Positions 991 to 64,000 of a stretch of DNA of 64,000 bases are shown in pieces. A program made the position numbers and the translations under genes. Numbering within the stretch: the stretch's first letter is position 1; the number at the start of each line of letters is the position of its first letter. This DNA is from Torpedo marmorata (taxonomy: Eukaryota), in the NCBI GenBank assembly GCA_977017645.1, contig OZ360246.1, positions 54,808,001-54,872,000 of the forward strand, given 5' to 3'. A model generated the notes under the pieces. The model did no database searches. It worked only from the letters and a program-made list of their open reading frames with translations, and was not told the DNA's origin.

Positions 991-1015
991 GGGGAGGGGG
1001 AGGGGGAAGGGAGAC

Positions 1016-5892: not shown

Positions 5893-6158
5893 TCTCCGGA
5901 GGGATGCCCCAGCCTGAGCTGATGATGGTGCGGACACTTACAACGCGATGCGCCGGGCACAGTAACTCCGTGCACACAACGTGGACACAACGTGGACAAC
6001 TTTCCCTGTCCCTGCCCCCGGGGAGGGAGCGTGAACACCGAGCCGCAGTGTCCGCGCTCGGGACGGACGCCCGTCGCTCGGCAGCCCGCCCCGCCTCGCC
6101 CCGCCATCCTCCCGCTCCCGCAACCCCGGTCCGCGCCGAGCGGCAGAGCGCGGAGTAC

Positions 6159-6210
6159 CTTCCAGCGCCCCCGCGGCGGGGAGCAGCCACACGATCCAGA
6201 AGATGGCCAT
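6159..6210 (-). CDS. First coding exon (signal peptide MAIFWIVWLLPAAGALE + 1 nt) of a secreted or type-I membrane protein; best guess an EphB-family receptor tyrosine kinase (EPHB4-like layout)
   Basis: ATG at 6210 in a strong Kozak context (ccacaATGG), a hydrophobic 17-aa leader ending A-G-A-L-E, then a donor GAAG|GTACTC at 6159/6158 (52 nt, phase 1), all inside a CpG island. From recall, EphB first exons end in ...A(L/V/M)E-G|, and human EPHB4 exon 1 encodes 52 coding nt (MELRVLLCWASLAAALE+G). Exon 2 was not found in the window, so the gene identity is unconfirmed. Confidence 0.6.
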
Positions 6211-7249
6211 TGTGGAGAGCGCTGAGCGCCGACTGCCTGCCTGCCCTGGCCGCGGAACGCCGACTGAGGCGCCGCACCATCCGCGGCGCGGGGAGGGGTC
6301 GCCTCGCAGCCGGCCAGCCCAGCTCGCCTCCCCCACGGGCGTACGCCGCGTCTCCGGCAGCCGCCACCTTCGGCGTTCCAGTAACAGCCCAGTCCACGTT
6401 CACCACAGCAAGCACAAAGCAACGTGGTGCACCCCTGTCCACGATTACTCCTCGCTCCCCCACCCCCGGCCGCAGTGGTACCTTCCGCGGCTGTCAATCA
6501 TCCAGATGTGGTTGTAGATCAGCTCCCCCGGCTCAGCGCTGCTCTGGTCAGGCACTGCACTTCCAGGTGTCCTCCCCTCCCCCCGGCTATGCGCTGCTCT
6601 GGTCAGGCACCGCAATTCCAGATGTGTCCCACGGCTCTTCGCTGCTCTGGTCAGGCACTGCAGTTCCAGATGTGCCAACCCAGCTCTGCGCTGCACTGGT
6701 CAGTCACTGTCACCAGAATGGACCCCCGGCTCAGCGCTGCTCTGGTCAGGCACTGCAATTACAGATGTGTCCCCGGCTGTGCTGCTCTGGTCAGAACCTG
6801 AAATTCCAGATGTGGCCCCCGGCTCTGCGCTGCCCTGGTCATACACTGCAATTTCAGATGTGCCCCCGGCTCTGAGCTGCTCTGATGAGAGACTGCAATT
6901 CCAGATGTGGACCCGGCTCTGTGATGCTCTGCCAAGTCACTAAAATTCCAGATGTTCCTCCGGCTCTGCTCTGGTCAGGCACTGCAATTCCAGATGTGTC
7001 CCCTGGCTCAGCACTGCTCTGGTCAGGCTCTGCAATTCCAGATGTGTCCCCTGGCTCAGCACTGCTCTGGTCAGGCTCTGCAATTCCAGATGTGTCCCCT
7101 GGCTCAGCACTGCTCTGGTCAGGCTCTGCAATTCCAAATGTGACCCCCGGCTCTGCGCTGCTCTGGTCTGGCACTACAATTCCAGATGTGCCACCCAGCT
7201 CTGCGCTCTCTGGTCAGAGACTGCAATTCCAGATGTGACCGGGCTCTGC

Positions 7250-10200
7250 GCTGCTCTGGTCAGGCACCACAATTCCAGATGTGTCTCCGGCTCTGCACTG
7301 CTCTGGTGAGTCACTGCAATTCCAAATGTGCCCACGGCTCTGCGCTGCTCTGGTCAGGCACTGCAATTCCAGAAGTTCCCCTTGCTCTGAGCTGCTCGGA
7401 ACAGATAATGAAATTCCAGATGTGGCCCGGCTCTGTGCTGCTCTGGTCAGTCACTGCAATTCCAGATGTGCCTCTGGCTCTGCTCTGGTCAGGCACTGCA
7501 ATTTCACATGTAACCCCTGGCTCTTCGCTGCTCTGGTCAGGCACTGCCATTCCAGATGTGACCACACGGCTCCGCACTGCTCTGGTCTGGCATTACATTT
7601 CCAGATGTGGGCCCTGGCTCAGCGCTCCTCTGGTCAGTCACTGCAATTCCAGATGTGACCATCCGCTCGGCACTGCTCTGGTCATGCACTGCAGTTCCAA
7701 ATGTGCCAACCCGGCTCTGCACTGCACTGGTCAGAGACTGCAATTCCAGATGTGGCCCCGGCTCTGCCGTGCTCTGGTCAGTCACTGTAATTCCAGTATT
7801 GCACCATGGCTCTGTGCTGCTCTGGTCAGGTACTGCAGTTCCAGATGTGGTGGCCTGGTTCTGTGCTGCTCTGTTCAGACACTACAATTCCAGATGTTCC
7901 CCGGCTCTACGCTGCATTAGTTAGAGTGCAATTCCAGATGTGGCCATGGCTCTGCCCTTCTCTGGTCACACTGCTGTTCCAGATGTGCCCCCACCCGGCT
8001 CTGTGCTATATTGGTCAGTCACTGCAATTCCAGATGTGGCCCCCGATTCTGTGCTGATCTGGTCAGCCACTACAAATCGAGTTGCCACCCCAGCTCTGCA
8101 CTGCTCTAGTCAGAGGCTGCAAATCCAGATGAGGCTCCAACTCTGCACTGCTCTGGTCATACACTGTAATTTCAGATGTGTGCCCCCGGCTCTGTGCTGC
8201 TCTGGTCATGCACTATAATTCCAGATGTGCCCCAGGCTCTGAACTGCTCTGATCAGAGACTACAATTCCAGATGTGGCCCCGGCTCTGCGCTGCTCTGGT
8301 CAGGCAACTCAATTCCAGATGTTTCCCCGGCTCTGCGCTGTTCTGGTCAGGCACTGCATTTCCAGATGTGGCCCCTGGCTCAGCACTGCTCTGGTCAGAC
8401 ACAGCAATTTCACATGTGGTCCCTCGGCTCTGCGCTGCTCTGGTCAGAGACTGCAATTCCAGATGTGACGCTACTCTGTGCTGATCTGGTCAGTAACAAC
8501 AATTCCAGATGTGCCCCCGGCTCTGAGCTGCTCTGATGAGAGACTGCAATTCCAGATGTGGACCCGGCTCTGTGCTGCTCTGGCCAGTCACTGAAATTCC
8601 AGATGTTGCCCTGACTCAGTGATGCTCTGGTCAGGCACTGCAATTCCCAGTGTGACCACCCGGCTTCGCACTGCTCTGGTCAGGCACTGCATTTCCAGAT
8701 GTGTCCCCTGGCTCAGCACTGCTCTGGTCAGGCTCTGCTATTCCAGATGTGACCCCCAGCTCTGCGCTGCTCTGGTCTGGCACTACAGTTCCAGATGTGC
8801 CACCCCGGCTCTGCGTTCTCTGGTCAGAGACTGCAATTCCAGATTTGACCTGGCTCTGCGCTGCTCTGGTCAGGCACCACTATTCCAGATGTGTCTCCGG
8901 CTCTGCACTGCTCTGGTGAGTCACTGCAATTCCAGATGTGCCCACGGCTCTGTGCTGCTCTGGTCATACACTGCAATTTCAGATGTGGGCCCCCGGCTCT
9001 GTGCTGCTCTGACCAGATAATGCAATTCCAGATGTGACCCGGCTCTGCCCTGCTCTGGTCAGTCACTGCAATTCCAGATGTTCCTCTGGCTCTGCTCTGG
9101 TCAGGCACTGCAATTTCACATGTAACCCCTGGCTCTTCGCTGCTCTGGTCAGGCACTGCCATTCCAGATGTGACCACACGGCTCCGCACTGCTCTGGTCT
9201 GGCACTGCATTTCCAGATGTGGGCCCTGGCTCAGCGCTCCTCTCGTCAGTCACTGCAATTCCAGATGTGACCACCCGTTCGGCACTGCTCTGGTCAGGCA
9301 CTGCAGTTCCAAAAGTGCCAACCCGGCTCTGCACTGCACTGGTCAGAGACTTCAATTCCAGATGTGGCCCCGGCTCTGCCCTGCTCTGGTCAGTCACTGT
9401 AATTCCAGTATTGCACCATGGCTCTGTGCTGCTCTGGTCAGGTACTGCAGTTCCAGATGTGGTGGCCTGGTTCTGTGCTGCTCTGTTCAGACACTACAAT
9501 TCCAGATGTTCCCCGGCTCTGCACTGCATTAGTCAGTGCAATTCCAGATTTGGACCTGGCTCTGTCCTGCTCTGGTCACACTGCAATTCAAGATGTGCCA
9601 CCGCCCGGCTCTGTGCTATTTTGGTCAGTCACTGCAATTCCAGATGTGGCCCCGGTTCTGTGCTGATCTGGTCAGCCACTACAAATCGAGTTGCCACCCC
9701 AGCTCTGCACCGCTCTAGTCAGAGGCTGAAAATCCAGATGTGGCTCCAACTCTGCACTGCTCTGGTCATACTCTGTAATTTCAGATGTAAGCCCCCGGCT
9801 CTGTGCTGCTCTGGTCAGGCCCTATAATTCCAGATGTGCCCCCGGCTCTGAACTGCTCTAATCAGAGACTACAATTCCAGATGTTTCCCCGGCTCTGCGC
9901 TGTTCTGGTCAGTCACTTCAATTTCAGAGGTGACCCTCGGTCCTGCATTGCACTGGTCAGGCACTGAAATTCCAGATATGGCACTCCGGCTCTGTTCTGC
10001 TCTGGTCAGGCACGGCATTTCCAAATATGGCCCCTGGCTCAGCACTGCTCTGGTCAGACACAGAAATTTCACATGTGGTCCCTCGGCTCTGCGCTGCTCT
10101 GGTTTGGCACTACAATTCCAGATGTGACACCCCAGCTCTGCGCTGCTCTGGTCAGAGACAGCAATTCCAGATGTGCCCCCGGCTCTGAGCTGCTCTGATG

Positions 10201-13200
10201 AGAGACTGCAATTCCAGATGTGGACCCGGCTCTGTGCTGATCTGGTCAGCCACTACAAATCGAGTTGCCACCCCAGCTCTGCACTGCTCTAGTCAGAGGC
10301 TGCAAATCCAGATGTGGCTCCGACTCTGCACTGCTCTGGTCATACACTGTAATTTCAGATGTGGGCCCCCGGCTCTGTGCTGCTCTGGTCAGGCACTATC
10401 ATTCCAGATGTGCCCCCAGCTCTGAGGTGCTCTGATCAGAGACTGCAATTCCCGATGAGGCACCAGCTCTGCGCTGCTCAGGTCAGGCAACTCAATTCCA
10501 GGTGTGTCCCCGGCTCAGCGCTGTTCTGGTCAGGCACTACAATTCCAGATGTGCCCCACGGCTCTTCTCTGCTCTGGTCAGGCACTGCAGTTCCAGATGT
10601 GCCAACCCGGCTCTACGCTGCACTGGTCAGTCACTGCAATTCCAGGTGTGACACCGGCTCTGCGCTGCTCTGGTCAGGCACTGCATTTCTAGATGTGCCC
10701 CTGGCTCAGCACTGCTCTGCTCAGGCACTGCAATTACAGATGTGGCCCCCGGTTCTGTGCTGCTCTGGTCAGACACTACAGTTCCAGATGTCCGCCCGGC
10801 TCTGCGCTGCATTGGTCAGAGACTGCAATTCCAGATGTGGCCACGACTCTGTCCTGCTCTGGTCAGTCACTGTCATTGCAGATGTGCACCATGTCTCTGT
10901 GCTACTTTGGTCAGGCACTGCAGTTGCAGATGTGCCCCTTAGCTCTTTGCTGCTCTGGTGAGTCACGGCAATTCCAGATGTGCCCCAGCTCTGCACTATT
11001 CTGGTCATACACTGCAATTTCAGATGTGGGCCCCCGGCTTTGTGCTGCTCTGGTCAGGCACTGCAATTCCAGATGTGCCCCTGGCTCTGAGCTGATCTGA
11101 CAAGATACTTCAATTCCAGATGTGGCCCGGCTCTGCGCTTCTCTGGCCAAACACTGCAATTCCAGATGTGAATCTGGCTCTGCTCTGGTCATGCACCACA
11201 ATTCCAGATGTTGCCACCAGCTCTACATTGCTCTTGTCAGGCACTGCAATTCCAGATGTGACTCCCGTCTTTTCGCTGTGCTGGTCAGGCAATGCAGTTC
11301 CAGATATGGACCCGGCTCTGTGCTGATCTGGTCAGCCACTACAAATCGAGTTGCCACCCCAGCTCTGCACTGCTATAGTCAGAGGCTGCAAATCCAGATG
11401 TGGCTCCGACTCTGCACTCCTCTGCTCATACACTGTAATTTCAGATGTGGGCCCCCGGCTCTGTGCTGCTCTGATTAGGGACTACAATTCCAGATGGTTC
11501 TCCGGCTCTGCTCTGCTCTGGTCAGGCACTGCAATTCCAGATGTAGCCCCCGGATCTGTACTGCTCTGGTCAGGCACTATCATTCCAGATGTGCCCCCAG
11601 CTCTGAGGTGCTCTGATCAGAGACTGCAATTCCCGATTTGGCACCGGCTCTGCGCTGCTCAGGTCAGGCAACTCAATTCCAGGTGTGTCCCCGGCTCAGC
11701 GCTGTTCTGGTCAGGCACTACAATTCCAGATGTGCCCCACTGCTCTTCTCTGCTCTGGTCAGGCACTGCCGTTCCAGATGTGCTAACCCGGCTCTACGCT
11801 GCACTGGTCAGTCTCTGCAATTCCAGGTGTGACACCGGCTCTGCGCTGCTCTGGTCAGGCACTGCAATTCTAGATGTGCCCCTGGCTCAGCACTGCTCTG
11901 CTCAGGCACTGCAATTACAGATGTGCCCCCGGCTGTACTGCTCTGGTCAGACACTGCAATTCCAGATGTGGCCCTCGGTTTTGTGCTGCTCTGGTCAGAC
12001 ACTACAGTTCCAGATGTCCGCCCGGCTCTGTGCTGCATTGGTCAGAGACTGCAATTCCAGATGTGGCCACGGCTCTGTCCTGCTCTGGTCAGTCACTGTA
12101 ATTGCAGATGTGCACCATGGCTCTGTGCTGCTCTGGTCAGGCACCACAATTCCAGATGTGTCTCCGGCTCTGCACTGCTCTGGTGAGTCACTGCAATTCC
12201 AAATGTGCCCACGGCTCTGCGCTGCTCTGGTCAGGCACTGCAATTCCAGAAGTTCCCCTTGCTCTGAGCTGCTCGGAACAGATAATGAAATTCCAGATGT
12301 GGCCCGGCTCTGTGCTGCTCTGGTCAGTCACTGCAATTCCAGATGTGCCTCTGGCTCTGCTCTGGTCAGGCACTGCAATTTCACATGTAACCCCTGGCTC
12401 TTCGCTGCTCTGGTCAGGCACTGCCATTCCAGATGTGACCACACGGCTCCGCACTGCTCTGGTCTGGCATTACATTTCCAGATGTGGGCCCTGGCTCAGC
12501 GCTCCTCTGGTCAGTCACTGCAATTCCAGATGTGACCATCCGCTCGGCACTGCTCTGGTCATGCACTGCAGTTCCAAATGTGCCAACCCGGCTATGCACT
12601 GCACTGGTCAGAGACTGCAATTCCAGATGTGGCCCGGCTCTGCCGTGCTCTGGTCAGTCACTGTAATTCCAGTATTGCACCATGGCTCTGTGCTGCTCTG
12701 GTCAGGTACTGCAGTTCCAGATGTGGTGGCCTGGTTCTGTGCTGCTCTGTTCAGACACTACAATTCCAGATGTTCCCCGGCTCTACGCTGCATTAGTTAG
12801 AGTGCAATTCCAGATGTGGCCATGGCTCTGCCCTTCTCTGGTCACACTGCTGTTCCAGATGTGCCCCCACCCGGCTCTGTGCTATATTGGTCAGTCACTG
12901 CAATTCCAGATGTGGCCCCCGATTCTGTGCTGATCTGGTCAGCCACTACAAATCGAGTTGCCACCCCAGCTCTGCACTGCTCTAGTCAGAGGCTGCAAAT
13001 CCAGATGAGGCTCCAACTCTGCACTGCTCTGGTCATACACTGTAATTTCAGATGTGTGCCCCCGGCTCTGTGCTGCTCTGGTCATGCACTATAATTCCAG
13101 ATGTGCCCCAGGCTCTGAACTGCTCTGATCAGAGACTACAATTCCAGATGTGGCCCCGGCTCTGCGCTGCTCTGGTCAGGCAACTCAATTCCAGATGTTT

Positions 13201-16200
13201 CCCCGGCTCTGCGCTGTTCTGGTCAGGCACTGCATTTCCAGATGTGGCCCCTGGCTCAGCACTGCTCTGGTCAGACACAGCAATTTCACATGTGGTCCCT
13301 CGGCTCTGCGCTGCTCTGGTCAGAGACTGCAATTCCAGATGTGACGCTACTCTGTGCTGATCTGGTCAGTAACAACAATTCCAGATGTGCCCCCGGCTCT
13401 GAGCTGCTCTGATGAGAGACTGCAATTCCAGATGTGGACCCGGCTCTGTGCTGCTCTGGCCAGTCACTGAAATTCCAGATGTTGCCCTGACTCAGTGATG
13501 CTCTGGTCAGGCACTGCAATTCCCAGTGTGACCACCCGGCTTCGCACTGCTCTGGTCAGGCACTGCATTTCCAGATGTGTCCCCTGGCTCAGCACTGCTC
13601 TGGTCAGGCTCTGCTATTCCAGATGTGACCCCCAGCTCTGCGCTGCTCTGGTCTGGCACTACAGTTCCAGATGTGCCACCCCGGCTCTGCGTTCTCTGGT
13701 CAGAGACTGCAATTCCAGATTTGACCTGGCTCTGCGCTGCTCTGGTCAGGCACCACTATTCCAGATGTGTCTCCGGCTCTGCACTGCTCTGGTGAGTCAC
13801 TGCAATTCCAGATGTGCCCACGGCTCTGTGCTGCTCTGGTCATACACTGCAATTTCAGATGTGGGCCCCCGGCTCTGTGCTGCTCTGACCAGATAATGCA
13901 ATTCCAGATGTGACCCGGCTCTGCCCTGCTCTGGTCAGTCACTGCAATTCCAGATGTTCCTCTGGCTCTGCTCTGGTCAGGCACTGCAATTTCACATGTA
14001 ACCCCTGGCTCTTCGCTGCTCTGGTCAGGCACTGCCATTCCAGATGTGACCACACGGCTCCGCACTGCTCTGGTCTGGCACTGCATTTCCAGATGTGGGC
14101 CCTGGCTCAGCGCTCCTCTCGTCAGTCACTGCAATTCCAGATGTGACCACCCGTTCGGCACTGCTCTGGTCAGGCACTGCAGTTCCAAAAGTGCCAACCC
14201 GGCTCTGCACTGCACTGGTCAGAGACTTCAATTCCAGATGTGGCCCCGGCTCTGCCCTGCTCTGGTCAGTCACTGTAATTCCAGTATTGCACCATGGCTC
14301 TGTGCTGCTCTGGTCAGGTACTGCAGTTCCAGATGTGGTGGCCTGGTTCTGTGCTGCTCTGTTCAGACACTACAATTCCAGATGTTCCCCGGCTCTGCAC
14401 TGCATTAGTCAGTGCAATTCCAGATTTGGACCTGGCTCTGTCCTGCTCTGGTCACACTGCAATTCAAGATGTGCCACCGCCCGGCTCTGTGCTATTTTGG
14501 TCAGTCACTGCAATTCCAGATGTGGCCCCGGTTCTGTGCTGATCTGGTCAGCCACTACAAATCGAGTTGCCACCCCAGCTCTGCACCGCTCTAGTCAGAG
14601 GCTGAAAATCCAGATGTGGCTCCAACTCTGCACTGCTCTGGTCATACTCTGTAATTTCAGATGTAAGCCCCCGGCTCTGTGCTGCTCTGGTCAGGCCCTA
14701 TAATTCCAGATGTGCCCCCGGCTCTGAACTGCTCTAATCAGAGACTACAATTCCAGATGTTTCCCCGGCTCTGCGCTGTTCTGGTCAGTCACTTCAATTT
14801 CAGAGGTGACCCTCGGTCCTGCATTGCACTGGTCAGGCACTGAAATTCCAGATATGGCACTCCGGCTCTGTTCTGCTCTGGTCAGGCACGGCATTTCCAA
14901 ATATGGCCCCTGGCTCAGCACTGCTCTGGTCAGACACAGAAATTTCACATGTGGTCCCTCGGCTCTGCGCTGCTCTGGTTTGGCACTACAATTCCAGATG
15001 TGACACCCCAGCTCTGCGCTGCTCTGGTCAGAGACAGCAATTCCAGATGTGCCCCCGGCTCTGAGCTGCTCTGATGAGAGACTGCAATTCCAGATGTGGA
15101 CCCGGCTCTGTGCTGATCTGGTCAGCCACTACAAATCGAGTTGCCACCCCAGCTCTGCACTGCTCTAGTCAGAGGCTGCAAATCCAGATGTGGCTCCGAC
15201 TCTGCACTGCTCTGGTCATACACTGTAATTTCAGATGTGGGCCCCCGGCTCTGTGCTGCTCTGGTCAGGCACTATCATTCCAGATGTGCCCCCAGCTCTG
15301 AGGTGCTCTGATCAGAGACTGCAATTCCCGATGAGGCACCAGCTCTGCGCTGCTCAGGTCAGGCAACTCAATTCCAGGTGTGTCCCCGGCTCAGCGCTGT
15401 TCTGGTCAGGCACTACAATTCCAGATGTGCCCCACGGCTCTTCTCTGCTCTGGTCAGGCACTGCAGTTCCAGATGTGCCAACCCGGCTCTACGCTGCACT
15501 GGTCAGTCACTGCAATTCCAGGTGTGACACCGGCTCTGCGCTGCTCTGGTCAGGCACTGCATTTCTAGATGTGCCCCTGGCTCAGCACTGCTCTGCTCAG
15601 GCACTGCAATTACAGATGTGGCCCCCGGTTCTGTGCTGCTCTGGTCAGACACTACAGTTCCAGATGTCCGCCCGGCTCTGCGCTGCATTGGTCAGAGACT
15701 GCAATTCCAGATGTGGCCACGACTCTGTCCTGCTCTGGTCAGTCACTGTCATTGCAGATGTGCACCATGTCTCTGTGCTACTTTGGTCAGGCACTGCAGT
15801 TGCAGATGTGCCCCTTAGCTCTTTGCTGCTCTGGTGAGTCACGGCAATTCCAGATGTGCCCCAGCTCTGCACTATTCTGGTCATACACTGCAATTTCAGA
15901 TGTGGGCCCCCGGCTTTGTGCTGCTCTGGTCAGGCACTGCAATTCCAGATGTGCCCCTGGCTCTGAGCTGATCTGACAAGATACTTCAATTCCAGATGTG
16001 GCCCGGCTCTGCGCTTCTCTGGCCAAACACTGCAATTCCAGATGTGAATCTGGCTCTGCTCTGGTCATGCACCACAATTCCAGATGTTGCCACCAGCTCT
16101 ACATTGCTCTTGTCAGGCACTGCAATTCCAGATGTGACTCCCGTCTTTTCGCTGTGCTGGTCAGGCAATGCAGTTCCAGATATGGACCCGGCTCTGTGCT

Positions 16201-16400
16201 GATCTGGTCAGCCACTACAAATCGAGTTGCCACCCCAGCTCTGCACTGCTATAGTCAGAGGCTGCAAATCCAGATGTGGCTCCGACTCTGCACTCCTCTG
16301 CTCATACACTGTAATTTCAGATGTGGGCCCCCGGCTCTGTGCTGCTCTGATTAGGGACTACAATTCCAGATGGTTCTCCGGCTCTGCTCTGCTCTGGTCA
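7250..16400 (+). repeat. Higher-order tandem duplication, period 4876-4877 bp (copy 1 ~7250-12126, copy 2 ~12127-16400)
   Basis: Identical ORFs at a constant offset (7311/12188, 7806/12682, 8619/13495, 11110/15986). Few differences, e.g. ggctctgc ~7713 vs ggctatgc ~12590, and a 1-bp C indel ~7757/12633. Confidence 0.95.
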
Positions 16401-21600: not shown

Positions 21601-22420
21601 GCCCCAGCTCTGCACTATTCTGGTCATACACTGCAATTTCAGATGTGGGCCCCCGGGTTTGTGCTGCTCTGGTCAGGCACTGCAATTCCAGATGTGCCCC
21701 TGGCTCTGAGCTGATCTGACAAGATACTTCAATTCCAGATGTGGCTCAGCTCTGCGCTTCTCTGGTCAATCACTGCAATTCCAGATGTGCATCTGGCTCT
21801 GCTCTGGTCATGCACCACAATTCCAGATGTGGCCACCAGCTCTACATTGCTCTTGTCAGGCACTTCAATTCCAGATATGACTCCCGTCTTTTCGCTGCGC
21901 TGGTCAGGCAATGCAGTTCCAGATGTGCCCTGGCTCTGTGCTGATCTGACCAGATACTGCAATTCCAGATTAGGCCAGGCTCTGCGCTGCTCTGGTCAGT
22001 CTGCAATTCCAGATGTGCATCTGGCTCTGCTATGGTCAGGCGCCGCAATTCCAGATGTGACCCGGCTCTGTGCTGCTCTTGTCAGGCACTCCAATTCCAC
22101 ATGTGACCCACGTCTTTTCCTTGCTTTGGTCAGGCAATACAGTTCCAGATGTGCCCCTGGTTCAGCGCTGCTCTGCTCAGGCACTGCAATTACAGATGTG
22201 CCCCGGCTGTGCTGCTCTGGTCAGACTACAATTCCAGATGTGGCCCCTGGTTCTGTGCTGCTCTGGACAGACAACACAGTTCCTGATGTCCCCCCGGTTC
22301 TGCGCTGCATTGGTCAGAAACTGCAATTCCAGATGTGGCCCCGGCTCTGCCCTGCTCTGGTCAGTCACTGTAATTGCAGATGTGCACCATGGCTCTGTGC
22401 TGCTCTGGTGAGTCACGGCA
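18221..22420 (+). repeat. Higher-order duplication, offset 2241 bp (a ~1963-bp unit plus an extra 278-bp block at ~20184-20461)
   Basis: ORF offsets 18790/21031, 19254/21495 and 19498/21739. ORFs 20225/20503 differ by 278. Confidence 0.9.
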
Positions 22421-30700: not shown

Positions 30701-31230
30701 CACGGCAATTCCCTATGTGCATCTCGCTCTGCTCTGCTCTGGTCAGTCACCGCAATTCCAGATGTGGACCCGGCTCTGCACTGCTCTGGTCGTACACTGC
30801 AATTTCAGATGTGGGCCCCCGGCTCTGTTCTGCTCTGATCAGGCACTGTAATTCTTGATGCGCCCCTGGTTCTGAGCTGTTCTGACCAGATACTGCAATT
30901 CCAGATGTGGCCCGGCTCTGCGCTGCTCTGGTCAGTCACTGCAATTCCAGATGTGCATATGGCTCTGCTCTGATCAGACACCGCAATTCCAGATGTGGAC
31001 CAGCCTCTGCGCTGCTCCTGTCAGGCACTGCAATTCAAGCTGTGACCCCCGTCTTTTCGCTGCTCTGGTCAGGCAATGCAGTTCCAGTTGTGCCCCTGGC
31101 TCAGCGCTACTCTGCTCAGGCACTGCAATTACATATGTGCCCCCGGCTGTGCTGCTCTGGTCAGGCATGGCAGTTCCAGATGTTCCACCTGGATCTGTGC
31201 TGGTCAGGCACTGCAATTTCAGATGTGCCC
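27765..31230 (+). repeat. Higher-order tandem duplication, period ~1730 bp
   Basis: Rare variant tgtaacggca at 27801 and 29530; ORF offsets 28191/29921 and 28520/30250. Confidence 0.88.
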
Positions 31231-51600: not shown

Positions 51601-54600
51601 CCGGAATTGCACTGGTCAGGCACTGCAATTACAGATATGGCCCCCGGCTTGTGCTGCTCTGGTCAGGCATGACAAATCAAGATGCCCCCCCACCAGCTCT
51701 GCACTGCTCTAGTCAGAGGTTGCCATTCCAGATGTGGCTCCGGCTCTGCGCTGCTCTGGTGAGCCTCGGCAATTCCCTATGTGCATCTGGCTCTACTCTG
51801 CTCTGGTCAGTTACCCCAATTCCAGATGTTGACCCGGCTCAGCACTGCCCTGCTCAGGCATTGCAATTACAGATGTGCCCCCGGCTGTGCTGCTCTGGTC
51901 AGACACTGCAATTCCAGTATTGCACCATGGCTCTGTGCTGCTCTGGTCAGGCACTGCTGTTCCAGATGTGCCCCCCCCGGTTCTGTGCTGCTTTGGTCAG
52001 ACACTACAATTCCAGGTGCCCCCCGGCTCTGCGCTACATTGGTCAGAGTGCAATTCCAGATGTGGCCCTGGCTCTGCCCTGCTCTGGTCACACTGCAATT
52101 CCAGATGTGTCCACCAGCTCTGCACTGCTCTGGTCAGGCACTGCAGTTCCAGATATGCCCCCACCCGGCTCTGTGCTATATTGGTCAGTCACTGCAATTC
52201 CAGATGTGGCCCCCGGTTCTGTGCTGCACTGGTCAGCCACTACAAATCGAGTTGCCACACCAGCTCTGAACTGCTCTAGTCAGAGGCTACAAATCCAGAT
52301 GTGGCTCCGACTCTGCGCTGCTCTGGTGAGTCACTGCAATTCCAGATGTGTCCCCCAGCTCTGCACTTCTCCGGTCAGGCACTGCAGTTCCAGATATGCC
52401 CCCACCCGGCTCTGTGCTATATTGGTCAGTCACTGCAATTCCAGATATGGCCCCCGGCTCTGCGCTGCTCAAGTCAGGCAACTCAATTCCAGATGTTTTC
52501 CCGGCTCTTCCCTGCTCTGGTCAGTCACTGCTATTGCATATGTACACCATGGCTCTGTGCTGCTCTGGTCAGGCACTGCAGTTCCAGATGTGCCCCCTAG
52601 CTCTGTGCTGTGCTGGTCAGGCACTGCAATATCAGATGTGTCCCCCAGCTCTGCACTGCTCTGACCAGGCACTGCAGTTCCAGGTGTGCCCCCATCCGGC
52701 TCTGTGGTATATTGGTCAGTAAATGCAATTCAGAGGTGACACGCCGGCTCTGCATTGCACTGGTCAGGCACTGAAATTGCAGGTATGGCCCCCGGATCTG
52801 TGCTGCTCTGGTCAGGCATGACAAATCAAGATGCCCCACCCCTTACCAGCTCTGCACTGCTCTAGTCAGAGGATGCCATTCCAGATATGGCTCCGGCTCT
52901 TCGCTGCTCTGGTGAGTCACGGCCATTCCAGATGTGAATTGGGCTCTGCTCTGCTCTGGTCCGTCACCGCAATTCCAGATGTGGGCCCCGGCTCTGTGCT
53001 GCTCTGGTCAGGCACTGTAATTCCAGATGCGCCCCTGGCTCTGAGCTGCTCTGACCAGATACTGCAATTCCAGATGTGGCCCGGCTCTGCGCTGCTCTGG
53101 TCAGGCAATGTGGTTCCAGTTGTGCCCCTGGTTCAGCACTACTCTGCTCAGGCACTGCAATTACATATGTGCCCCCGGCAGTGCTGCTCTGGTCAGGCAT
53201 GGCAGTTCCAGATGTGCCCCCTGGATCTGTTCTGTGCTGGTCAGGCACAGCAATTTCAGATGTGCCCCCCAGCTTTGCACTGCTCTGGTCAGTCCCTGCC
53301 GTTCCAGATATGCACCACCCGGCTCTGTACTATATTGGTCAGTCACTGCAATTCCAGATGTGGCCCTCGGCTCTGTGCTACTCTGGACAGGCACTAAAAA
53401 TCGAGATCCCTCCTCCCCTTCCCCCACCGCAGCTCTGCACTATTCTGGTCAGAGGTTGAAATTACAGATGTGGCTCCGGCTCTGCTCTGCTCTGGTGAGT
53501 CACTGAAATTCCAGATATGACCCCGACACTGCGCTGCCCTGCTCATACACTGCAATTTCATATGTGGGCCCCCGGCTCTGCGCTGATCTGGTCAGGCAGT
53601 GCAATTCCCGATGTGCCACGGCTCTGAGCAGCTCTGATGAGAGACTGCAATTCAACATGTGGCCCCGTCTCTGTGCTGCTCTAGCCATTCACTGAAATTC
53701 CAGATGTGCCTCCTGCTCTGCTCTGCTCGGGTCAGGCACTGCAATTCCAGATGTAGCCCCCGGATCTCCGCTGCTCTGGTCAGGAACTGCAATCCCAGAT
53801 GTGGCCCCTGGCTCAGTGATGCTCATGTCAGGCACTGCAATTCCCAGTGTGACCACCTGGCTTTGCACTGCTCTGGTCAGGCACTGCATTTCCAGATGTG
53901 GCACCTGGCTCAGCACTGCTCTGGTCAGACACAGCAATTTCACATGTGTTCGCTCGGCTCTGCGCTGCTCTGGTCTGGCACTACAATTCCATATGTGACA
54001 CCCCGGTTCTGCGCTGCTCTGGTCAGAGACTGCAATTCCAGATGTGACCCGGCTCTGCGCTGCTCTGGTCAGGCACCAGAATTCCAGATGTGTCCCTGGC
54101 TCTGCACTGTTCTGGTCGGGCACCACAATTCAAGAAGTGTCCCACGGCTCTTCGCTGCTCTGGTCAGGCACTGCAGTTCCAGATGTGCCAACCCGGCTCT
54201 GCGCTGCACTGGTCAGTCACTGCAATTCCAGATGTGACCCCGGATCTGCGCTGGTCTGGTCAGGCACTGCAATTCTAGATGTGTCACTGGCTCAGCACTG
54301 CTCTGCTCAGGCATTGCAATTACAGATGTGCCCCCGGCTGTGCTGCTCTGGTCAGACACTGCAATTCCAGTATTGCACCATGGCTCTGTGCTGCTCTGGG
54401 CAGGCACTGCAGTTCCAGATATGCCCCCACCCGGCTCTGTGCTATATTGGTCATACACTGTAATTTCAGATGTGGGCCCCTGCCTCTGTGCTGCTCTGGT
54501 CAGGCACTATAATTCCAGATGTGCACCCGGCTCTGAGCTACTCTGATCAGAGACTGCAATTCCAGATGTGGCCCCGGCTCTGCGCTGCTCAAGTCAGGCA

Positions 54601-55069
54601 ATTCAATTCCAGATGTTTTCCCGGATCTTCCCTGCTCTGGTCAGTCACTGCAATTGCAGATGTGCACTATGGCTCTGTGCTGCTCTGGTCAGGCACTGCA
54701 GTTCCAGATGTGCCCACTAGCTCTGTGCTGTGTTGGTCAGGCACTGCAATATCAGATGTGTCCCCCAGCTCTGCACTGCTCTGGCCAGGCATTGCTATTC
54801 CAGGTGTGCCCCCACCCGGCCCTGTGGTATATTGGTCAGTCACTGCAATTCCAGAGGTGACCCTCGGTCCTGCATTGCACTGGTCAGGCACTGAAATTGC
54901 AGATATGTCCCCCGGCTCTGTGCTGCTCTGGTCAGGCATGACAAATCAAGATGTCCCCCCTCCTCACCAGCTCTGAAATGCTCTAGTCAGAGGTTGCCAT
55001 TCCAGATGTGGCACCGGCTCTGCTCTGATCTGGTCAGTCACCGCAATTCCAGATGTGGACCCGGCTCTG

Positions 55070-58000
55070 CACTTCTCTGGTCATACACTGCAATTTCAGA
55101 TGTGGCCTCCCTGCTCTGTGCTGCTCTGATCAGGCACTGTAATTCCAGATGCTCCCTGGCTCTGAGCTGTTCTGACCAGATACTGCAATTCCAGATGTGG
55201 CCCGGCTCTGCGCTGCTCTGGTCAGTCACTGCCATTCCAGATGTGCACATGGCTCTGCTCTGCTCTGGTCAGACACCGCAATTCCAGATGTGGACCCGGC
55301 TCTGCGCTGCTCTTGTCAGGCACTGCAATTACATATGTGCCCCCGGCTGTGCTGCTCTGGTCAGGCATGGCAGTTCCAGATGTGCCCCCTGGATCTATGC
55401 TGTGCTGGCCAGGCACTGCAATTTCAGATGTGCCCCCCTGCTTTGCACTGATCTGGTCAGGCCCTGCCGTTCTAGATATGCCCCCACCCGGCTCTGTCCT
55501 ATATTGGTCAGTCACTGCAATTCCAGATGTGGCTCCCGGCTCTGTGCTGCTCTAGACAGGCACTAAAAATCGAGATCCCCCCCGCAGCTCTGCACTGCTC
55601 TGGTCAGAGGCTGAAATTCCAGATGTGGATCCTGCTCTGCTCTGCTCTGGTGAGTCACTGCAATTCCAGATGTTCTCCCGACACTGCGCTGCCCTGGTCA
55701 TACACTGCAATTTCAGATGTGGGCCCCCTGCTCTGCGCTGAGCTGGTCAGGCACTGCAATTCCCGATGTGCCACGGCTCTGAGCTGCTCTGATCAGAGTG
55801 TGCAATTCCACATGTGGACCCGTCTCTGTGCTGCTCTGGCCATTCACTGAAATTCCAGATGTGCCTCCTGCTCTGCTCTGCTCGGGTCAGGCACTGCAAT
55901 TCCAGGTGTAGCCCCCGGATCTCCGCTGCTCTGGTAAAGAACTGCAATCCCAGATGTGGTCCCTGGCTCAGCGATGCTCATGTCAGGCACTGCAATTCCC
56001 GATGTGACCACCTGGCTTCGCACTGCTCTGGTCAGGCACTGCATTTCCAGATGTGGCACCTGGCTCAGCACTGTTATGGTCAGACACAGCAATTTCACAT
56101 GTGGTCGCTCGGCTCTGCGCTGCTCTGGTCTGGCACTATAATTCCAGATGTGACACCCCGGCTCTGCGCTGCTCTGGTCAGAGACTGCAATTCCAGATGT
56201 GACAAGGCTCTGCTCTGCTCTGGTCAGTCACTGCAATTCCAGATGTGCCTCCAGTTCTGCTCTGCTCAGGCACTGCAATTACAGATGTGTCCCTAGCTTT
56301 CCACTTCTGGTCGGGCACCACAATTCAAAATGTGTCCCACGGCTCTTCGCTGCTCTGGTCAGGAACGGCAGTTCCAGATATGGACCCGGCTCTTCGCTGG
56401 TCTGGTCAGGCACTGCAATTCCAGATGTTTGCCCGACTCTGCACTGCTCTGGTCAGTCACTGCAATTCCAGATGTGCCTCCAGCTCTGCTCTGCTCAGGC
56501 ACTGCAATTACAGATGTGGCCCCCGGTTCTGTGCTGCTCTGGTCAGACAATGCAAATCCAGATTTCCCCCCGTCTCTACGCTGCATTGGTCAGAGACTGC
56601 AATTCCAGATGTGGTCCCGGCTCTGTCCTGCTCTGGTCAGTCATTGCAATTCCAGTATTGCACCATGGCTCTGTGCTGCTCTGGTCAGGCACTGCAATTC
56701 CAGTTGTGGCCCCCCGGTTCGCTGCTGCTTTGTTCAGACACTACAATTCCAGATATCCCCCGGCTCTGCGCTGCATTGGTCAGAGTGCAATTCCAGATGT
56801 GGTCCCGGCTCTGCCCTGCTCTGGTCAGTCACTGCAATTCCAGATGCGTCCCCCAACTCTGCACTGCTCTGGCCAGGCACTGCAGTTCCAGGTGTGCCCC
56901 CACGCGGCTCTGTGGTATATTGGTCAGTCACTGCAATTCCAGAGGAGACACTCGACTCTGCACCTCGCTGATCAGTCACAGCAATTCCAGATGTGTCCCC
57001 CAGCTCTGCACTGCTCTGGCCAGGCACTGCAGTTCCAGGTGTGCCCCCACCCGGATCTGTGGTATATTGGTCAGTCACTGCAATTCCAGAGGTGACCCTC
57101 GGTTCTGCATTGCACTGGTCAAGCACTGCAATTCCAGATATGGACCCGGCTCTGTGCTGCTATAGTCAGGCGTGATAAATCGAGATCCCCCCCCCAGCTC
57201 AGCACTGCACTAGTCAGAGGCTGCAAATCTAGATGTCGCTCCGGCTCTTCGCTGCTCTGGTGAGTCACTGCAATTCACATGTGCCCCCGGCTCTGCGCTG
57301 CTCTGGTCATACACTGCAATTTTCAGATGTGGGCCGCCGGCTCTGTGCTGCTCAGGTTTGGCACTACAATTCCAGATGTGACACCCCGGCTCTGCGCTGC
57401 TCTGGTCAGAGACTTCAATTCCAGATGTGACCCGGCTCTGCGCTGCTCTGCTCAGGCACAACAATTCCAGATGTGTCACTGGCTCTGCATTGTTCTGGTC
57501 GGGCACCGCAATTCAAGATGTCTCCCACGGCTCTTCGCTGCTCTGGTCAGGCACTGCAGTTCCAGATGTGCCAACCCGGCTCTGCGCTGCACAGGTCAGT
57601 CACTGCAATTACAGATGTGCCCCCGGCTGTGCTGCTCTGGTCAGACACTGCAGTTCCAGATGTGGCCCCCCGGTTCTCTGCTGCTTCGGTCAGACACTAC
57701 AATTCCAGATATACCCCGGCTCGGCGCTGCATTTATCACAGTGCAATTCCAGATGTGGCCCCGGCTCTGCCTGCTCTGGTCAGTCACTGCAATTCCAGAT
57801 GTGTCCCCCAGCTCTGCACTGCTCTGCTCAGGCACTGAAGTTCCAGATGTGCCCCCACCCGGCTCTGTGCTATATTGGTCTTTAACTGCAATTCCGGGTG
57901 TGACCCTCGGCTCTGCACCTCGCTGGTCAGGTATTGCAATTCCAAATGTGGCCCCCGGTTCTGTGCTGCTCTGGTCAGCCACTGCAAATCGAGATTCCAC

Positions 58001-61000
58001 CCCAGCTCTGCACTGCACTAGTCAGAGGCTGCAAATCTAGATGTGGCTCTGGCTCTTTGCTGCTCTGGTGAGTCACTGCAATTCCAGATGTGCCCCCGAT
58101 TCTGCGCTTCTCTGGTCATACACTGCAATTTTCAGATGTGGTCCCCCGGCTCTGTGCTGCTCTGGTCTGGCACGACAATTCCAGATGTGATACCCAGGCT
58201 CTGCGCTGCTCTGGTCAGAGACGGCAATTTCATATGTGACCCGGCTCTGCGCTGCTCTGGTCAGGCACCACAATTCCAGATGTGTCCCTGGTTCTGCACT
58301 GTTCTGGCCGGGCACCGCAATTCAAGATGTCTCCCACGGCTCTTCTCTGCTCTGGTCAGGCACTGCAGTTCCAGATGAGCCAACCCGGATCTGCGTTGCA
58401 CTGGTCAGCCACTGCAATTCCAGATGTGACCCAGGCTCTGCGCTGCCCTGGTCAGGCACTGCAGTTCCAGATGTGCCCCCTGCTCTGTGCTGCTCTGGTC
58501 AGGCACTATAATTCCAGATGTGCCCCCGGCTCTGAGCTGCTCTGATCAGACACTGCAATTCCAGAAGTGAACCCGGATCTGCGCTGCTCTGGTCAGTCAC
58601 TGCAATTGCAGATGTGCCTCCAGCTCTGCTCTGCTCAGGTACTGCAATTACAGATGTGCCCCCCCCGGTTCTGTGTTGCTCTGGTCAGGCACTGCAGTTC
58701 CAGATGTGATCCCCTGTTCTGTGCTGCTCTGGTCAGACATTACAATTCCAGATGTACCCCCGGCTCTGCACTGCATTGGTCAGAGACTGCAATTCCAGAT
58801 GTGTCCCCCAGCTCTGCACTGCTCTGGTCAGGCACTGCAGTTCCAGATGTGCCCCACCCGGCTCTGTGCTATATTGGTCAGTCACTGCAATTCCAGGTGT
58901 GACCCTCGGCTCTGCACCTCGCTGGTCAGGCACTGCAATTCCAGATGTGGCCCCCAGTTCTGAGCTGCTCTGGTCAGCCACTACAAATCGAGATGCCACC
59001 CCAGCTCTGCACTTCTCTCGTCAGAGGCTGCAAATCCAGATGTGGATCCGACTCTGTGCTGCTCTGGTGAGTCACTGCAAATCCAGAAGTGCCCCCGGCT
59101 CTGCGCTGCTCTGGTCATACACTGCAATTTCAGATGTGGCCTCCCTGCTCTGTACTGCTCTGATCAGGCACTGTAATTCCAGATGCTCCCTGGCTCTGAG
59201 CTGTTCAGACCAGATACTGCAATTCCAGATGTGGCCCGGCTCTGCGCTGCTCTGGTCAGTCACTGCCATTCCAGATGTGCACATGGCTCTGCTCTGCTCT
59301 GGTCAGACACCGCAATTCCAGATGTGGACCCGGCTCTGCGCTGCTCTTGTCAGGCACTGCAATTACATATGTGCCCCCGGCTGTGCTGCTCTGGTCAGGC
59401 ATGGCAGTTCCAGATGTGCCCCCTGGATCTGTGCTGTGCTGGCCAGGCACTGCAATTTCAGATGTGCCCCCCTGCTTTGCACTGATCTGGTCAGGCCCTG
59501 CCGTTCTAGATATGCCCCCACCCGGCTCTGTCCTATATTGGTCAGTCACTGCAATTCCAGATGTGGCTCCCGGCTCTGTGCTGCTCTAGACAGGCACTAA
59601 AAATCGAGATCCCCCCCGCAGCTCTGCACTGCTCTGGTCAGAGGCTGAAATTCTAGATGTGGATCCTGCTCTGCTCTGGTGAGTCACTGCAATTCCAGAT
59701 GTTCTTCCGACACTGCGCTGCCCTGGTCATACACTGCAATTTCAGATGTTGGCCCCCTGCTCTGCGCTGAGCTGGTCAGGCACTGCAATTCCCGATGTGC
59801 CACGGCTCTGAGCTGCTCTGATCAGAGTGTGCAATTCCACATGTGGACCCGTCTCTGTGCTGCTCTGGCCATTCACTGAAATTCCAGATGTGCCTCCTGC
59901 TCTGCTCTGCTCGGGTCAGGCACTGCAATTCCAGGTGTAGCCCCCGGATCTCCGCTGCTCTGGTCAGGAACTGCAATCCCAGATGTGGCCCCTGGCTCAG
60001 CGATGCTCATGTCAGGCACTGCAATTCCCGGTGTGACCACCTGGCTTCGCACTGCTCTGGTCAGGCACTGCATTTCCAGATGTGGCACCTGGCTCAGCAC
60101 TGCTATGGTCAGACACAGCAATTTCACATGTGGTCGCTCGGCTCTGCGCTGCTCTGGTCTGGCACTATAATTCCAGATGTGACACCCCGGCTCTGCGCTG
60201 CTCTGGTCAGAGACTGCAATTCCAGATGTGACACGGCTCTGCTCTGGTCAGTCACTGCAATTCCAGATGTGCCTCCAGTTCTGCTCTGCTCAGGCACTGC
60301 AATTACAGATGTGTCCCTGGCTTTCCACTTCTGGTCGGGCACCACAATTCAAAATGTGTCCCACGGCTCTTCGCTGCTCTGGTCAGGAACTGCAGTTCCA
60401 GATATGGACCCGGTTCTTCGCTGGTCTGGTCAGGCACTGCAATTCCAGATGTTTGCCCGACTCTGCACTGCTCTGGTCAGTCACTGCAATTCCAGATGTG
60501 CCTCCAGCTCTGCTCTGCTCAGGCACTGCAATTACAGATGTTCTGTGCTGCTCTGGTCAGACAATGCAAATCCAGATGTCCCCCCGTCTCTACGCTGCAT
60601 TGGTCAGAGACTGCAATTCCAGATGTGGTCGCGGCTCTGTCCTGCTCTGGTCAGTCATTGCAATTCCAGTATTGCACCATGGCTCTGTGCTGCTCTGGTC
60701 AGGCACTGCAATTCCAGTTGTGGCCCCCCGGTTCGCTGCTGCTTTGGTCAGACACTACAATTCCAGATATCCCCCGGCTCTGCGCTGCATTGGTCAGAGT
60801 GCAATTCCAGATGTGGCCCCGGCTCTGCCCTGCTCTGGTCAGTCACTGCAATTCCAGATGCGTCCCCCAACTCTGCACTGCTCTGGCCAGGCACTGCAGT
60901 TCCAGGTGTGCCCCCACGCGGCTCTGTGGTATATTGGTCAGTCACTGCAATTCCAGAGGAGACACTCGACTCTGCACCTCGCTGATCAGTCACAGCAATT

Positions 61001-62790
61001 CCAGATGTGTTCCCCAGCTCTGCACTGCTCTGGCCAGGCACTGCAGTTCCAGGTGTGCCCCCACCCGGATCTGTGGTATATTGGTCAGTCACTGCAATTC
61101 CAGAGGTGACCCTCGGTTCTGCATTGCACGGGTCAAGCACTGCAATTCCAGATATGGACCCGGCTCTGTGCTGCTCTGGTCAGGCGTGACAAATCGAGAC
61201 CTCCCCCCCCCCAGCTCAGCACTGCACTAATCAGAGGCTGCAAATCTAGATGTCGCTCCGGCTCTTCGCTGCTCTGGTGAGTCACTGCAATTCACATGTG
61301 CCCCCGGCTCTGCGCTGCTCTGGTCATACACTGCAATTTTCAGATGTGGGCCGCCGGCTCTGTGCTGCTCAGGTTTGGCACTACAATTCCAGATGTGACA
61401 CCCCGGCTCTGCGCTGCTCTGGTCAGAGACTTCAATTCCAGATGTGACCCGGCTCTGCGCTGCTCTGCTCAGGCACAACAATTCCAGATGTGTCACTGGC
61501 TCTGCATTGTTCTGGTCGGGCACCGCAATTCAAGATGTCTCCCACGGCTCTTCGCTGCTCTGGTCAGGCACTGCAGTTCCAGATGTGCCAACCCGGCTCT
61601 GCGCTGCACAGGTCAGTCACTGCAATTACAGATGTGCCCCTGGCTGTGCTGCTCTGGTCAGACACTGCAGTTCCAGATGTGGCCCCCCGGTTCTCTGCTG
61701 CTTCGGTCAGACACTACAATTCCAGATATACCCCGGCTCGGCGCTGCATTTATCACAGTGCAATTCCAGATGTGGCCCCGGCTCTGCCCTGCTCTGGTCA
61801 GTCACTGCAATTCCAGATGTGTCCCCCAGCTCTGCACTGCTCTGCTCAGGCACTGAAGTTCCAGATGTGCCCCCACCCGGCTCTGTGCTATATTGGTCTT
61901 TAACTGCAATTCCGGGTGTGACCCTCGGCTCTGCACCTCGCTGGTCAGGTATTGCAATTCCAAATGTGGCCCCCGGTTCTGTGCTGCTCTGGTCAGCCAC
62001 TGCAAATCGAGATGCCACCCCAGCTCTGCACTGCACTAGTCAGAGGCTGCAAATCTAGATGTGGCTCTGGCTCTTTGCTGCTCTGGTGAGTCACTGCAAT
62101 TCCAGATGTGCCCCCGATTCTGCGCTTCTCTGGTCATACACTGCAATTTTCAGATGTGGTCCCCCGGCTCTGTGCTGCTCTGGTCTGGCACGACAATTCC
62201 AGATGTGATACCCAGGCTCTGCGCTGCTCTGGTCAGAGACGGCAATTTCATATGTGACCCGGCTCTGCGCTGCTCTGGTCAGGCACCACAATTACAGATG
62301 TGTCCCTGGTTCTGCACTGTTCTGGCCGGGCACCGCAATTCAAGATGTCTCCCACGGCTCTTCTCTGCTCTGGTCAGGCACTGCAGTTCCAGATGAGCCA
62401 ACCCGGATCTGCGTTGCACTGGTCAGCCACTGCAATTCCAGATGTGACCCAGGCTCTGCGCTGCCCTGGTCAGGCACTGCAGTTCCAGATGTGCCCCCCT
62501 GCTCTGTGCTGCTCTGGTCAGGCACTATAATTCCAGATGTGCCCCCGGCTCTGAGCTGCTCTGATCAGACACTGCAATTCCAGATGTGGCCCCGGATCTG
62601 CGCTGCTCTGGTCAGTCACTGCAATTGCAGATGTGACTCCAGCTCTGCTCTGCTCAGGTACTGCAATTACAGATGTGCCCCCCCCGGTTCTGTGTTGCTC
62701 TGGTCAGGCACTGCAGTTCCAGATATGATCCCCTGTTCTGTGCTGCTCTGGTCAGACATTACAATTCCAGATGTACCCCCGGCTCTGCGC
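55070..62790 (+). repeat. Higher-order tandem duplication, period ~4.01-4.03 kb
   Basis: ORF offsets 55038/59072, 56734/60748, 57210/61227 and 58043/62061. Confidence 0.9.
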
Positions 62791-64000
62791 TGCATTGGTC
62801 AGAGACTGCAATTCCAGATGTGGTCGCGGCTCTGTCCTGCTCTGGTCAGTCATTGCAATTCCAGTATTGCACCATGGCTCTGTGCTGCTCTGGTCAGGCA
62901 CTGCAATTCCAGTTGTGGCCCCCCGGTTCGCTGCTGCTTTGGTCAGACACTACAATTCCAGATATCCCCCGGCTCTGCGCTGCATTGGTCAGAGTGCAAT
63001 TCCAGATGTGGCCCCGGCTCTGCCCTGCTCTGGTCAGTCACTGCAATTCCAGATGCGTCCCCCAACTCTGCACTGCTCTGGCCAGGCACTGCAGTTCCAG
63101 GTGTGCCCCCACGCGGCTCTGTGGTATATTGGTCAGTCACTGCAATTCCAGAGGAGACACTCGACTCTGCACCTCGCTGATCAGTCACAGCAATTCCAGA
63201 TGTGTCCCCCAGCTCTGCACTGCTCTGGCCAGGCACTGCAGTTCCAGGTGTGCCCCCACCCGGATCTGTGGTATATTGGTCAGTCACTGCAATTCCAGAG
63301 GTGACCCTCGGTTCTGCATTGCACTGGTCAAGCACTGCAATTCCAGATATGGACCCGGCTCTGTGCTGCTCTGGTCAGGCGTGACAAATCGAGACCTCCC
63401 CCCCCCCAGCTCAGCACTGCACTAGTCAGAGGCTGCAAATCTAGATGTCGCTCCGGCTCTTCGCTGCTCTGGTGAGTCACTGCAATTCACATGTGCCCCC
63501 GGCTCTGCGCTGCTCTGGTCATACACTGCAATTTTCAGATGTGGGCCGCCGGCTCTGTGCTGCTCAGGTTTGGCACTACAATTCCAGATGTGACACCCCG
63601 GCTCTGCGCTGCTCTGGTCAGAGACTTCAATTCCAGATGTGACCCGGCTCTGCGCTGCTCTGCTCAGGCACAACAATTCCAGATGTGTCACTGGCTCTGC
63701 ATTGTTCTGGTCGGGCACCGCAATTCAAGATGTCTCCCACGGCTCTTCGCTGCTCTGGTCAGGCACTGCAGTTCCAGATGTGCCAACCCGGCTCTGCGCT
63801 GCACAGGTCAGTCACTGCAATTACAGATGTGCCCCCGGCTGTGCTGCTCTGGTCAGACACTGCAGTTCCAGATGTGGCCCCCCGGTTCTCTGCTGCTTCG
63901 GTCAGACACTACAATTCCAGATATACCCCGGCTCGGCGCTGCATTTATCACAGTGCAATTCCAGATGTGGCCCCGGCTCTGCCCTGCTCTGGTCAGTCAC
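60590..64000 (+). repeat. Higher-order tandem duplication, period 2195 bp (second copy cut by the window end)
   Basis: tggtcgcgg at 60626 and 62821; ORF offsets 60748/62943 and 61227/63422. Confidence 0.9.

Follow-up and report, generated by a model that had tools for sequence, protein, structure and literature searches.

A satellite array with a 47-bp unit, more than 57 kb long, ends less than 300 bp from the start codon of a gene which probably encodes an EphB-type receptor. It was found in the electric ray Torpedo marmorata (assembly GCA_977017645.1, contig OZ360246.1, positions 54,808,001 to 54,872,000 of the forward strand), in a stretch of 64,000 nucleotides that is referred to as the window and numbered from its first letter. 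The arrangement is best explained, with a probability of roughly 0.6, as a passive methylated satellite that was halted at a self-protecting CpG-island promoter. According to this reading the array would be a non-coding, germ-line methylated block whose segments of 0.5–5 kb are turned over by slippage or by unequal exchange in register, so that a stock of some 150 old monomer variants is shuffled. It would have grown until it met the promoter, and its edge would have been fixed at the unmethylated CpG island of a gene whose product is secreted or a type I membrane protein, perhaps similar to EphB4. This promoter would be compact and self-sufficient, kept open by the island itself, by Sp/Klf boxes and by a binding site for TALE factors (DECA site) at its outer edge. 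Deletions or expansions into the promoter would be selected against, and the outermost 250 bp or so of the array would share in the protection. The array would be a passive neighbour, with distal regulation coming from elsewhere.

The junction between array and promoter

The following features of the window are referred to in this and the next sections:

5601..6500, no strand: CpG island, GC 73%, observed/expected (o/e) CpG ratio 0.85, its sense (minus) strand G-skewed downstream of exon 1
5907..5952, plus strand: possible lone monomer relic, marginal, in the same orientation as the array (profile scoring)
6159..6210, minus strand: coding part of exon 1, the product being secreted or a type I membrane protein and perhaps an EphB (EphB4-like), from signal peptide and splice donor
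6211..6500, minus strand: unique 5' untranslated region (UTR) and core promoter, without TATA box, with two Sp/Klf-like boxes and one upstream ATG
6463..6510, plus strand: possible degenerate edge monomer containing the DECA site, 34 of 50 columns, not significant given the monomer tail
6491..6500, minus strand: DECA site TGATTGACAG, exact motif, named in PMC6023610
6501..6524, plus strand: 10-bp monomer tail with E-box and 14-bp spacer, from alignment
6525..6769, plus strand: first five monomers, probable fringe of the unmethylated island, from CpG retention
6525..64000, plus strand: 47-bp satellite array, a patchwork of about 150 variant classes without fixed higher-order period, from Tandem Repeats Finder (TRF) and wraparound alignment
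7250..16401, plus strand: near-perfect duplicate of a 4.28-kb stretch of the array, the copies differing by 1 mismatch and 1 gap

The first-pass annotation had placed the start of the array at about 6501–6525, some 300 bp from the candidate ATG at 6210 on the minus strand, and this position is borne out by the alignment. Between the A of the ATG and the array lie 290 bp of unique DNA if a first monomer fragment is included in the array, and 314 bp if the array is taken to begin with its first clean monomer. The fragment is a monomer tail of 10 bp (6501–6510), which carries a CAGATG E-box at 6503–6508 and is followed by a non-monomer spacer of 14 bp up to position 6524. The earlier statement that under 300 bp are left for promoter and UTR is correct for the unique upstream gap of about 290 bp, but it omits the approximately 560 bp of the island that lie within intron 1. 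That the promoter might itself be decayed array was rejected, as the segment 6211–6500 fits the monomer no better than shuffled sequence does (its score is equalled or exceeded in 161 of 200 and in 139 of 200 shuffles).

Flush with the terminal fragment of the array lies an exact TALE (Pbx/Prep) DECA motif, TGATTGACAG, which occupies positions 6491–6500 of the minus strand and is separated by 2 bp from the last E-box. The exact 10-mer was encountered in none of 1,000 shuffles of the island and its relaxed form in two. In zebrafish, Prep and Pbx bind DECA elements, reach nucleosome-occupied sites or compact chromatin and promote H3K27ac, while such elements mostly show no enhancer activity alone (PMC6023610). 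The site of the ray resembles these elements in its exact sequence and in its position at the edge of a CpG-island promoter; it differs by having no CCAAT box nearby, and a position flush with a satellite is not described in the excerpt of PMC6023610. TALE factors would be predicted to bind here, and the DECA site together with the terminal E-box could form a composite element or could merely mark the point where the array halted. A relaxed site of the DECA type, TGANTGACAG, is present in intron 1 at 3438–3447 of the plus strand.

The monomers next to the island differ from the remainder of the array in their CpG content. Within the first five (6525–6769) 9 out of 10 consensus CpGs are kept, as compared to 1,045 of 2,422 (43%) array-wide, and only 6 of 1,207 five-monomer windows are this CpG-rich, the edge window included; with window sizes of 3 to 10 monomers the number is 4–15 of about 1,205. 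The first monomers are also high in identity to the consensus. This suggests that the protection exerted by the unmethylated island also covers roughly the nearest 250 bp of the array.

Such a gradient, with CpGs retained specifically on the island side, is not expected from a random misjoin, and taken together with the flush DECA site it argues for a junction that is real and old. An assembly error that brought together an array and a promoter which are not neighbours in vivo is extremely improbable, even if long satellites are error-prone in assemblies and a stretch of 4.28 kb within this one is duplicated with only 2 differences. At the edge a ragged fragment and a spacer are found instead of an N gap, and the first monomers do not derive from a single internal block, their nearest neighbours being scattered.

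Two monomer-like stretches on the promoter side hint weakly at a local origin of the monomer. The segment 6463–6510 can be aligned as a degenerate edge monomer over 34 of 50 columns; once its 10-bp tail is taken as given, 84 and 57 of 1,000 shuffles do at least as well. The second, a lone stretch at 5907–5952 (plus strand), agrees in 33 of 50 columns, and its profile score is reached by 2 of 300 shuffles in what was one of several post hoc tests, the signal not being seen with plain consensus scoring.

Anatomy, turnover and CpG decay of the array

The wraparound alignment resolves the array into 1,212 head-to-tail monomers from 6525 to the end of the window, the last one being partial. Beyond the unique gap it fills all the sequence upstream of the ATG, as had been annotated, and it continues past the end of the window, so that 57 kb is a lower bound on its length. 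TRF reports a period of 47 with 1209.7 copies between 6580 and 64000 (72% matches, 5% indels) and in addition a row of period 142 that begins at 6525. Eleven rows upstream of 6525, obtained by lenient alignment back to position 6069, are an artefact and were excluded from the monomer counts. The monomer has a GC content of 56%. For the 1,211 full monomers the mean identity is 84% to the consensus and 76% between pairs; 855 of their sequences are distinct, and the consensus itself is matched exactly by none. Consensus 14-mers occur 5,385 times in the plus and never in the minus orientation of the array, and only 2 of the 1,211 monomers match at fewer than 32 of the 47 positions, from which it follows that the array contains neither transposon insertions nor inversions.

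No fixed higher-order repeat (HOR) period was detected over the array, be it from lag identities, from the spacing of variant words or from internal copies, and the best lag in monomer space reaches an identity of 0.776 compared to a median of 0.756. With a threshold of 6 differences 148 variant classes are distinguished, and short conserved runs ("words") recur array-wide at irregular spacing. Of the array, 48% falls within an exactly recurring 100-mer, and there are 34 internal copies of at least 500 bp with identities of 92–100%, whose offsets range from 1.6 to 26 kb with many different values. We infer that an older unit of several monomers has lost its order through recurrent rounds of slippage or of unequal exchange in register. 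One pair of segments, 7250–11525 and 12127–16401, represents either a very recent duplication or an assembly duplicate. One monomer variant has expanded C-runs where its copies are joined (27966–27982, 32479–32499, 36582–36598 and 40058–40073), giving rise to motifs of the G-quadruplex type on the minus strand.

The array bears the marks of CpG decay. Among 832 distinct monomers, the two consensus CpGs show C-to-T changes in 26% of cases as compared to 6% at other C positions, and G-to-A changes in 20% as compared to 8%; the CpG decay in the array amounts to a fourfold excess. The CpG o/e ratio is 0.31 in the array and 0.85 in the adjoining island. CpG-specific transitions combined with a low o/e ratio are the signature of long-term germ-line methylation, and the present-day array is presumably methylated and heterochromatic as well, as judged from its letters.

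With head-to-tail monomers over tens of kilobases and no coding function the array is a satellite DNA. Its longest stop-free frame comprises 468 codons, a length equalled in 114 of 200 shuffles of the monomer order, and two long frames gave no Pfam match at cut-off, hence a coding array was rejected. An origin from an RNA or tRNA gene was likewise rejected: no tRNA gene was found, and the Rfam search of positions 1–9000 yielded nothing credible, its one match (E 0.55) being at chance level. A special secondary structure was dismissed as well (z 0.06 for four monomers). When pseudo-open reading frames of the array served as a proxy for the satellite elsewhere, 0 of 8,000 candidate proteins matched in an insensitive search, and a full protein scan that included them returned two weak, unnamed matches (E 3e-4 and 9e-4, identity 43% and 30%). 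As a control, a Pfam-positive fragment of a long interspersed nuclear element (LINE) from intron 1 also remained without match in the protein search; the empty protein searches therefore speak neither for absence nor for novelty.

Regulatory readings and known systems

The first-pass annotation had considered the array as a possible cis-regulatory element and as a candidate for a new system, a claim that finds no support here. The array holds 766 copies of CAGATG, a variant of the E-box bound by basic helix-loop-helix (bHLH) factors (10.1101/2023.05.29.541540), and 556 copies of TTCCAGATGT. The E-box is kept in 61% of the distinct monomers, while 58% are expected from the individual columns and 58–62% are found for five other CpG-free hexamers. 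Being no better conserved than other hexamers, it gives no sign of selection on a regulatory motif, and the CpG decay argues against open chromatin in the array. The annotation had further posed introns and array as the only alternative sources of distal regulation. This dichotomy does not hold, since a promoter in a CpG island needs little space and an enhancer can be situated downstream of it or on the far side of an array. The array may still exert a size-dependent methylation or position effect.

An active role would mean that the roughly 770 E-boxes recruit or sequester bHLH factors of the TWIST/HAND/NeuroD type, or that the size of the block sets the methylation pressure, with the copy number tuning the gene and the terminal E-box and DECA site acting as a composite TALE-bHLH element. 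The sheer number of E-boxes and the distance of 2 bp between the last one and the DECA site are in its favour, and promoter variable number tandem repeats (VNTRs) that act on methylation and expression provide a precedent (10.1101/2020.12.16.423078). On the other hand, any 47-mer contains some motif whose copy number simply follows from amplification, the E-box lacks excess conservation, and the CpG decay implies a methylated and probably closed array. Such a role is considered unlikely. In its most far-reaching version, an E-box array of more than 57 kb and more than 1,200 copies would be locus-born and have arisen from the TALE/E-box element of the promoter, with the monomer-like stretches at 6463–6510 and 5907–5952 as relics. 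It would act on an EphB-type gene as a rheostat set by copy number, or as a landing pad for bHLH factors, and the DECA site would form a barrier separating the open promoter from satellite chromatin. This version is highly improbable.

Several points weigh against the favoured explanation of a passive satellite stopped at its promoter. Passivity is argued from absence, and satellite motifs can function without standing out in conservation. Human VNTRs within 2 kb of a transcription start site are 7.9-fold enriched among expression-associated repeats (10.1101/2020.12.16.423078). The DECA site has no CCAAT box in its vicinity, the nearest one being 1.5 kb away, whereas NF-Y is as a rule found some 20 bp from such sites (PMC6023610). 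Finally, the criteria of the exon and DECA shuffles and the choice of five monomers per window date from after the sequence had been viewed.

Comparison with known systems places the array between several of them. It shares with human expression- and methylation-associated promoter VNTRs (eVNTR/mVNTR) a GC-rich unit of minisatellite size and a location within 2 kb of a probable transcription start (290–314 bp from the ATG of the inferred first exon), but in the tested human set the mean span is 353 bp (10.1101/2020.12.16.423078) as opposed to more than 57 kb here, and the array is known from a single sequence. Constraint on a factor-binding motif within the unit, which characterizes a regulatory VNTR, is absent from its E-box. 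A further promoter-proximal human case is the INS VNTR. The macrosatellites D4Z4 and DXZ4 consist of homogeneous units of about 3 kb, and D4Z4 encodes DUX4; what they have in common with the array is a large size that could set the local chromatin state, whereas the unit here is 47 bp long, non-coding and 16% diverged.

Among avian satellites, the 41-bp CNM and PO41 of chicken dot chromosomes likewise combine a short divergent monomer with long arrays and segmental copies of tens of monomers (PMC9974502). This likeness is one of description and not of sequence, and CNM is arranged in regular centromeric HORs, whereas the array contains scrambled variants and lacks the fixed higher-order period of centromeric satellites of the CNM or alpha type. 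Tgut191A of zebra finch is a methylated satellite beside gene-rich euchromatin (10.1101/2025.10.14.682431), as is proposed for the array, but it belongs to another lineage and its unit is, by name, 191 bp long. In sharks, tandem repeats are enriched on the short chromosomes (PMC10620051), in line with the favoured explanation.

These parallels lead to another alternative, which is compatible with the passive explanation. A pericentromeric or subtelomeric domain of satellite DNA on a small chromosome would end here, the array being part of it and a member of a multi-locus family that is structural and not locus-born, and the gene would be the last euchromatic one. A length of more than 57 kb without interruption and in a single orientation fits this proposal, as do the unit size and divergent monomers of CNM and the hypermethylated satellite that adjoins euchromatin on zebra finch microchromosomes. 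A 46-bp satellite is known from the Y chromosome of a shark, its sequence being different by eye (PMC11406177). The alternative is weakened by the lack of a regular HOR, by the absence of telomeric repeats from the window, by the GC-rich monomer and by the one marginal monomer relic in the island, which hints at a local history. On balance it is improbable.

In agreement with the annotation, in which the monomer was not recognized as a known satellite family, it was found neither in a full-text library of papers nor among the listed matches on chondrichthyan satellites, with Repbase, Dfam, subscription journals, figures and supplements lying outside the scope of this search. Provisionally, the satellite family is regarded as undescribed. 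The matches listed on arrays near promoters comprise work on macrosatellites and VNTRs, and no title among them resembles the present case. An apparently undescribed satellite would thus meet an unusually sharp boundary, with less than 300 bp between a long, presumably methylated array and the start codon of a probable developmental gene, and with the TALE site exactly at the border the locus offers a compact setting in which to study how CpG islands withstand heterochromatin next to them. If the length of the array tuned the gene, regulation by promoter VNTRs would extend to satellite scale and satellite turnover would gain a direct route to phenotype. A rheostat as described above, if real, would amount to a vertebrate regulatory repeat of satellite size that stems from a promoter and exceeds typical promoter VNTRs by two orders of magnitude.

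Leader exon, gene identity and intron 1

The CpG island lies above the thresholds of GC >50–55%, o/e ratio >0.6 and length >500 bp. It harbors a candidate exon of 52 nt, 6210–6159 on the minus strand, that consists of 17 codons plus one base followed by AG/GT. The exon combines a strong Kozak context, a hydrophobic core of 8 residues, an A-G-A cleavage motif, Leu16-Glu17 and a phase-1 donor. Of the 12 ATGs on both strands of the island only the one at 6210 joins strong Kozak context, hydrophobic core and splice donor, and the combination of features appears in 2 of 1,000 shuffles, or in 5 if the Kozak context is not required. This upholds the annotation of a first coding exon and promoter beside the array. 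An acceptor would require a pyrimidine tract, which precedes none of the 17 upstream AGs (9 of 15 positions in the best case), and together with the G skew of the sense strand downstream this makes 6159–6210 probably exon 1. Transcription is likely to start within the island. In the segment 6211–6500 there is no TATA box, and two Sp/Klf-like boxes are located at 6290 and 6458. An upstream ATG at 6280 (minus strand) is out of frame, its own frame remaining open past exon 1, and could dampen translation if it is part of the 5' UTR.

The gene probably encodes an EphB receptor. Eph genes start with a signal-peptide first exon that ends in phase 1, which is the case for the candidate, and in EphB3, EphB4 and EphB6 the leader exon typically closes with Leu-Glu and in phase 1. 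The cleavage motif followed by Leu16 is also in register with the mature start of human EphB4, whose ectodomain construct spans Leu16–Arg539 (10.64898/2025.12.08.692997); being an agreement in one residue, this is weak. The alternative, that the exon is real but belongs to a different gene, or that promoter and exon are dead, is tenable though short of even odds; it concerns the identity of the gene only and is independent of the other alternatives discussed above. Just 17 codons are visible, and leader exons of 52 nt ending in phase 1 occur in unrelated genes such as RS1 (PMC9658040). The short leader had no match among PDB sequences and none among 510 candidates of a protein set, in a search that is insensitive and that also missed the Pfam-positive LINE fragment, so that these results carry little weight. 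Within the 6.1 kb of positions 1–6158, none of 35 acceptor-donor candidates appears Eph-like by eye as an exon 2, and in 32 of the 86 stop-to-stop frames Pfam detected no Eph domain but only PF09004 in the LINE fragment. No confirmation of the EphB exon-1 length was found in the literature. Judging by amniote synteny, the gene might be EPHB6, in which case the T-cell receptor beta locus would be expected on the other side of the array. No V(D)J signal sequences were found in the window. The intact island, however, argues against a dead promoter.

Downstream of exon 1 the window contains two further features:

1..6158, minus strand: partial intron 1 of more than 6.1 kb with fragments of LINEs and short interspersed nuclear elements (SINEs), from exon candidates and Pfam frames
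5648..5884, minus strand: G-rich minisatellite in intron 1 with two motifs of the G-quadruplex type, from TRF

LINE fragments are located at about 397–580 (PF09004), 600–1000, 1020–1170, 3005–3240 and 3450–3700; they are presumably Rex1-like and CR1-like. A tRNA-type SINE at about 1357–1565 has its B-box at 1412 and probably resembles the elasmobranch HE1 V-SINE. The presumed likeness of these LINE and SINE fragments to elasmobranch elements points to a shark or ray genome. HE1 is a V-SINE of sharks and rays (PMC4824008). The G-rich minisatellite is composed of units of 14–31 bp, and its G-quadruplex-type motifs, at 5783–5804 and 5836–5864, are found on the sense strand.

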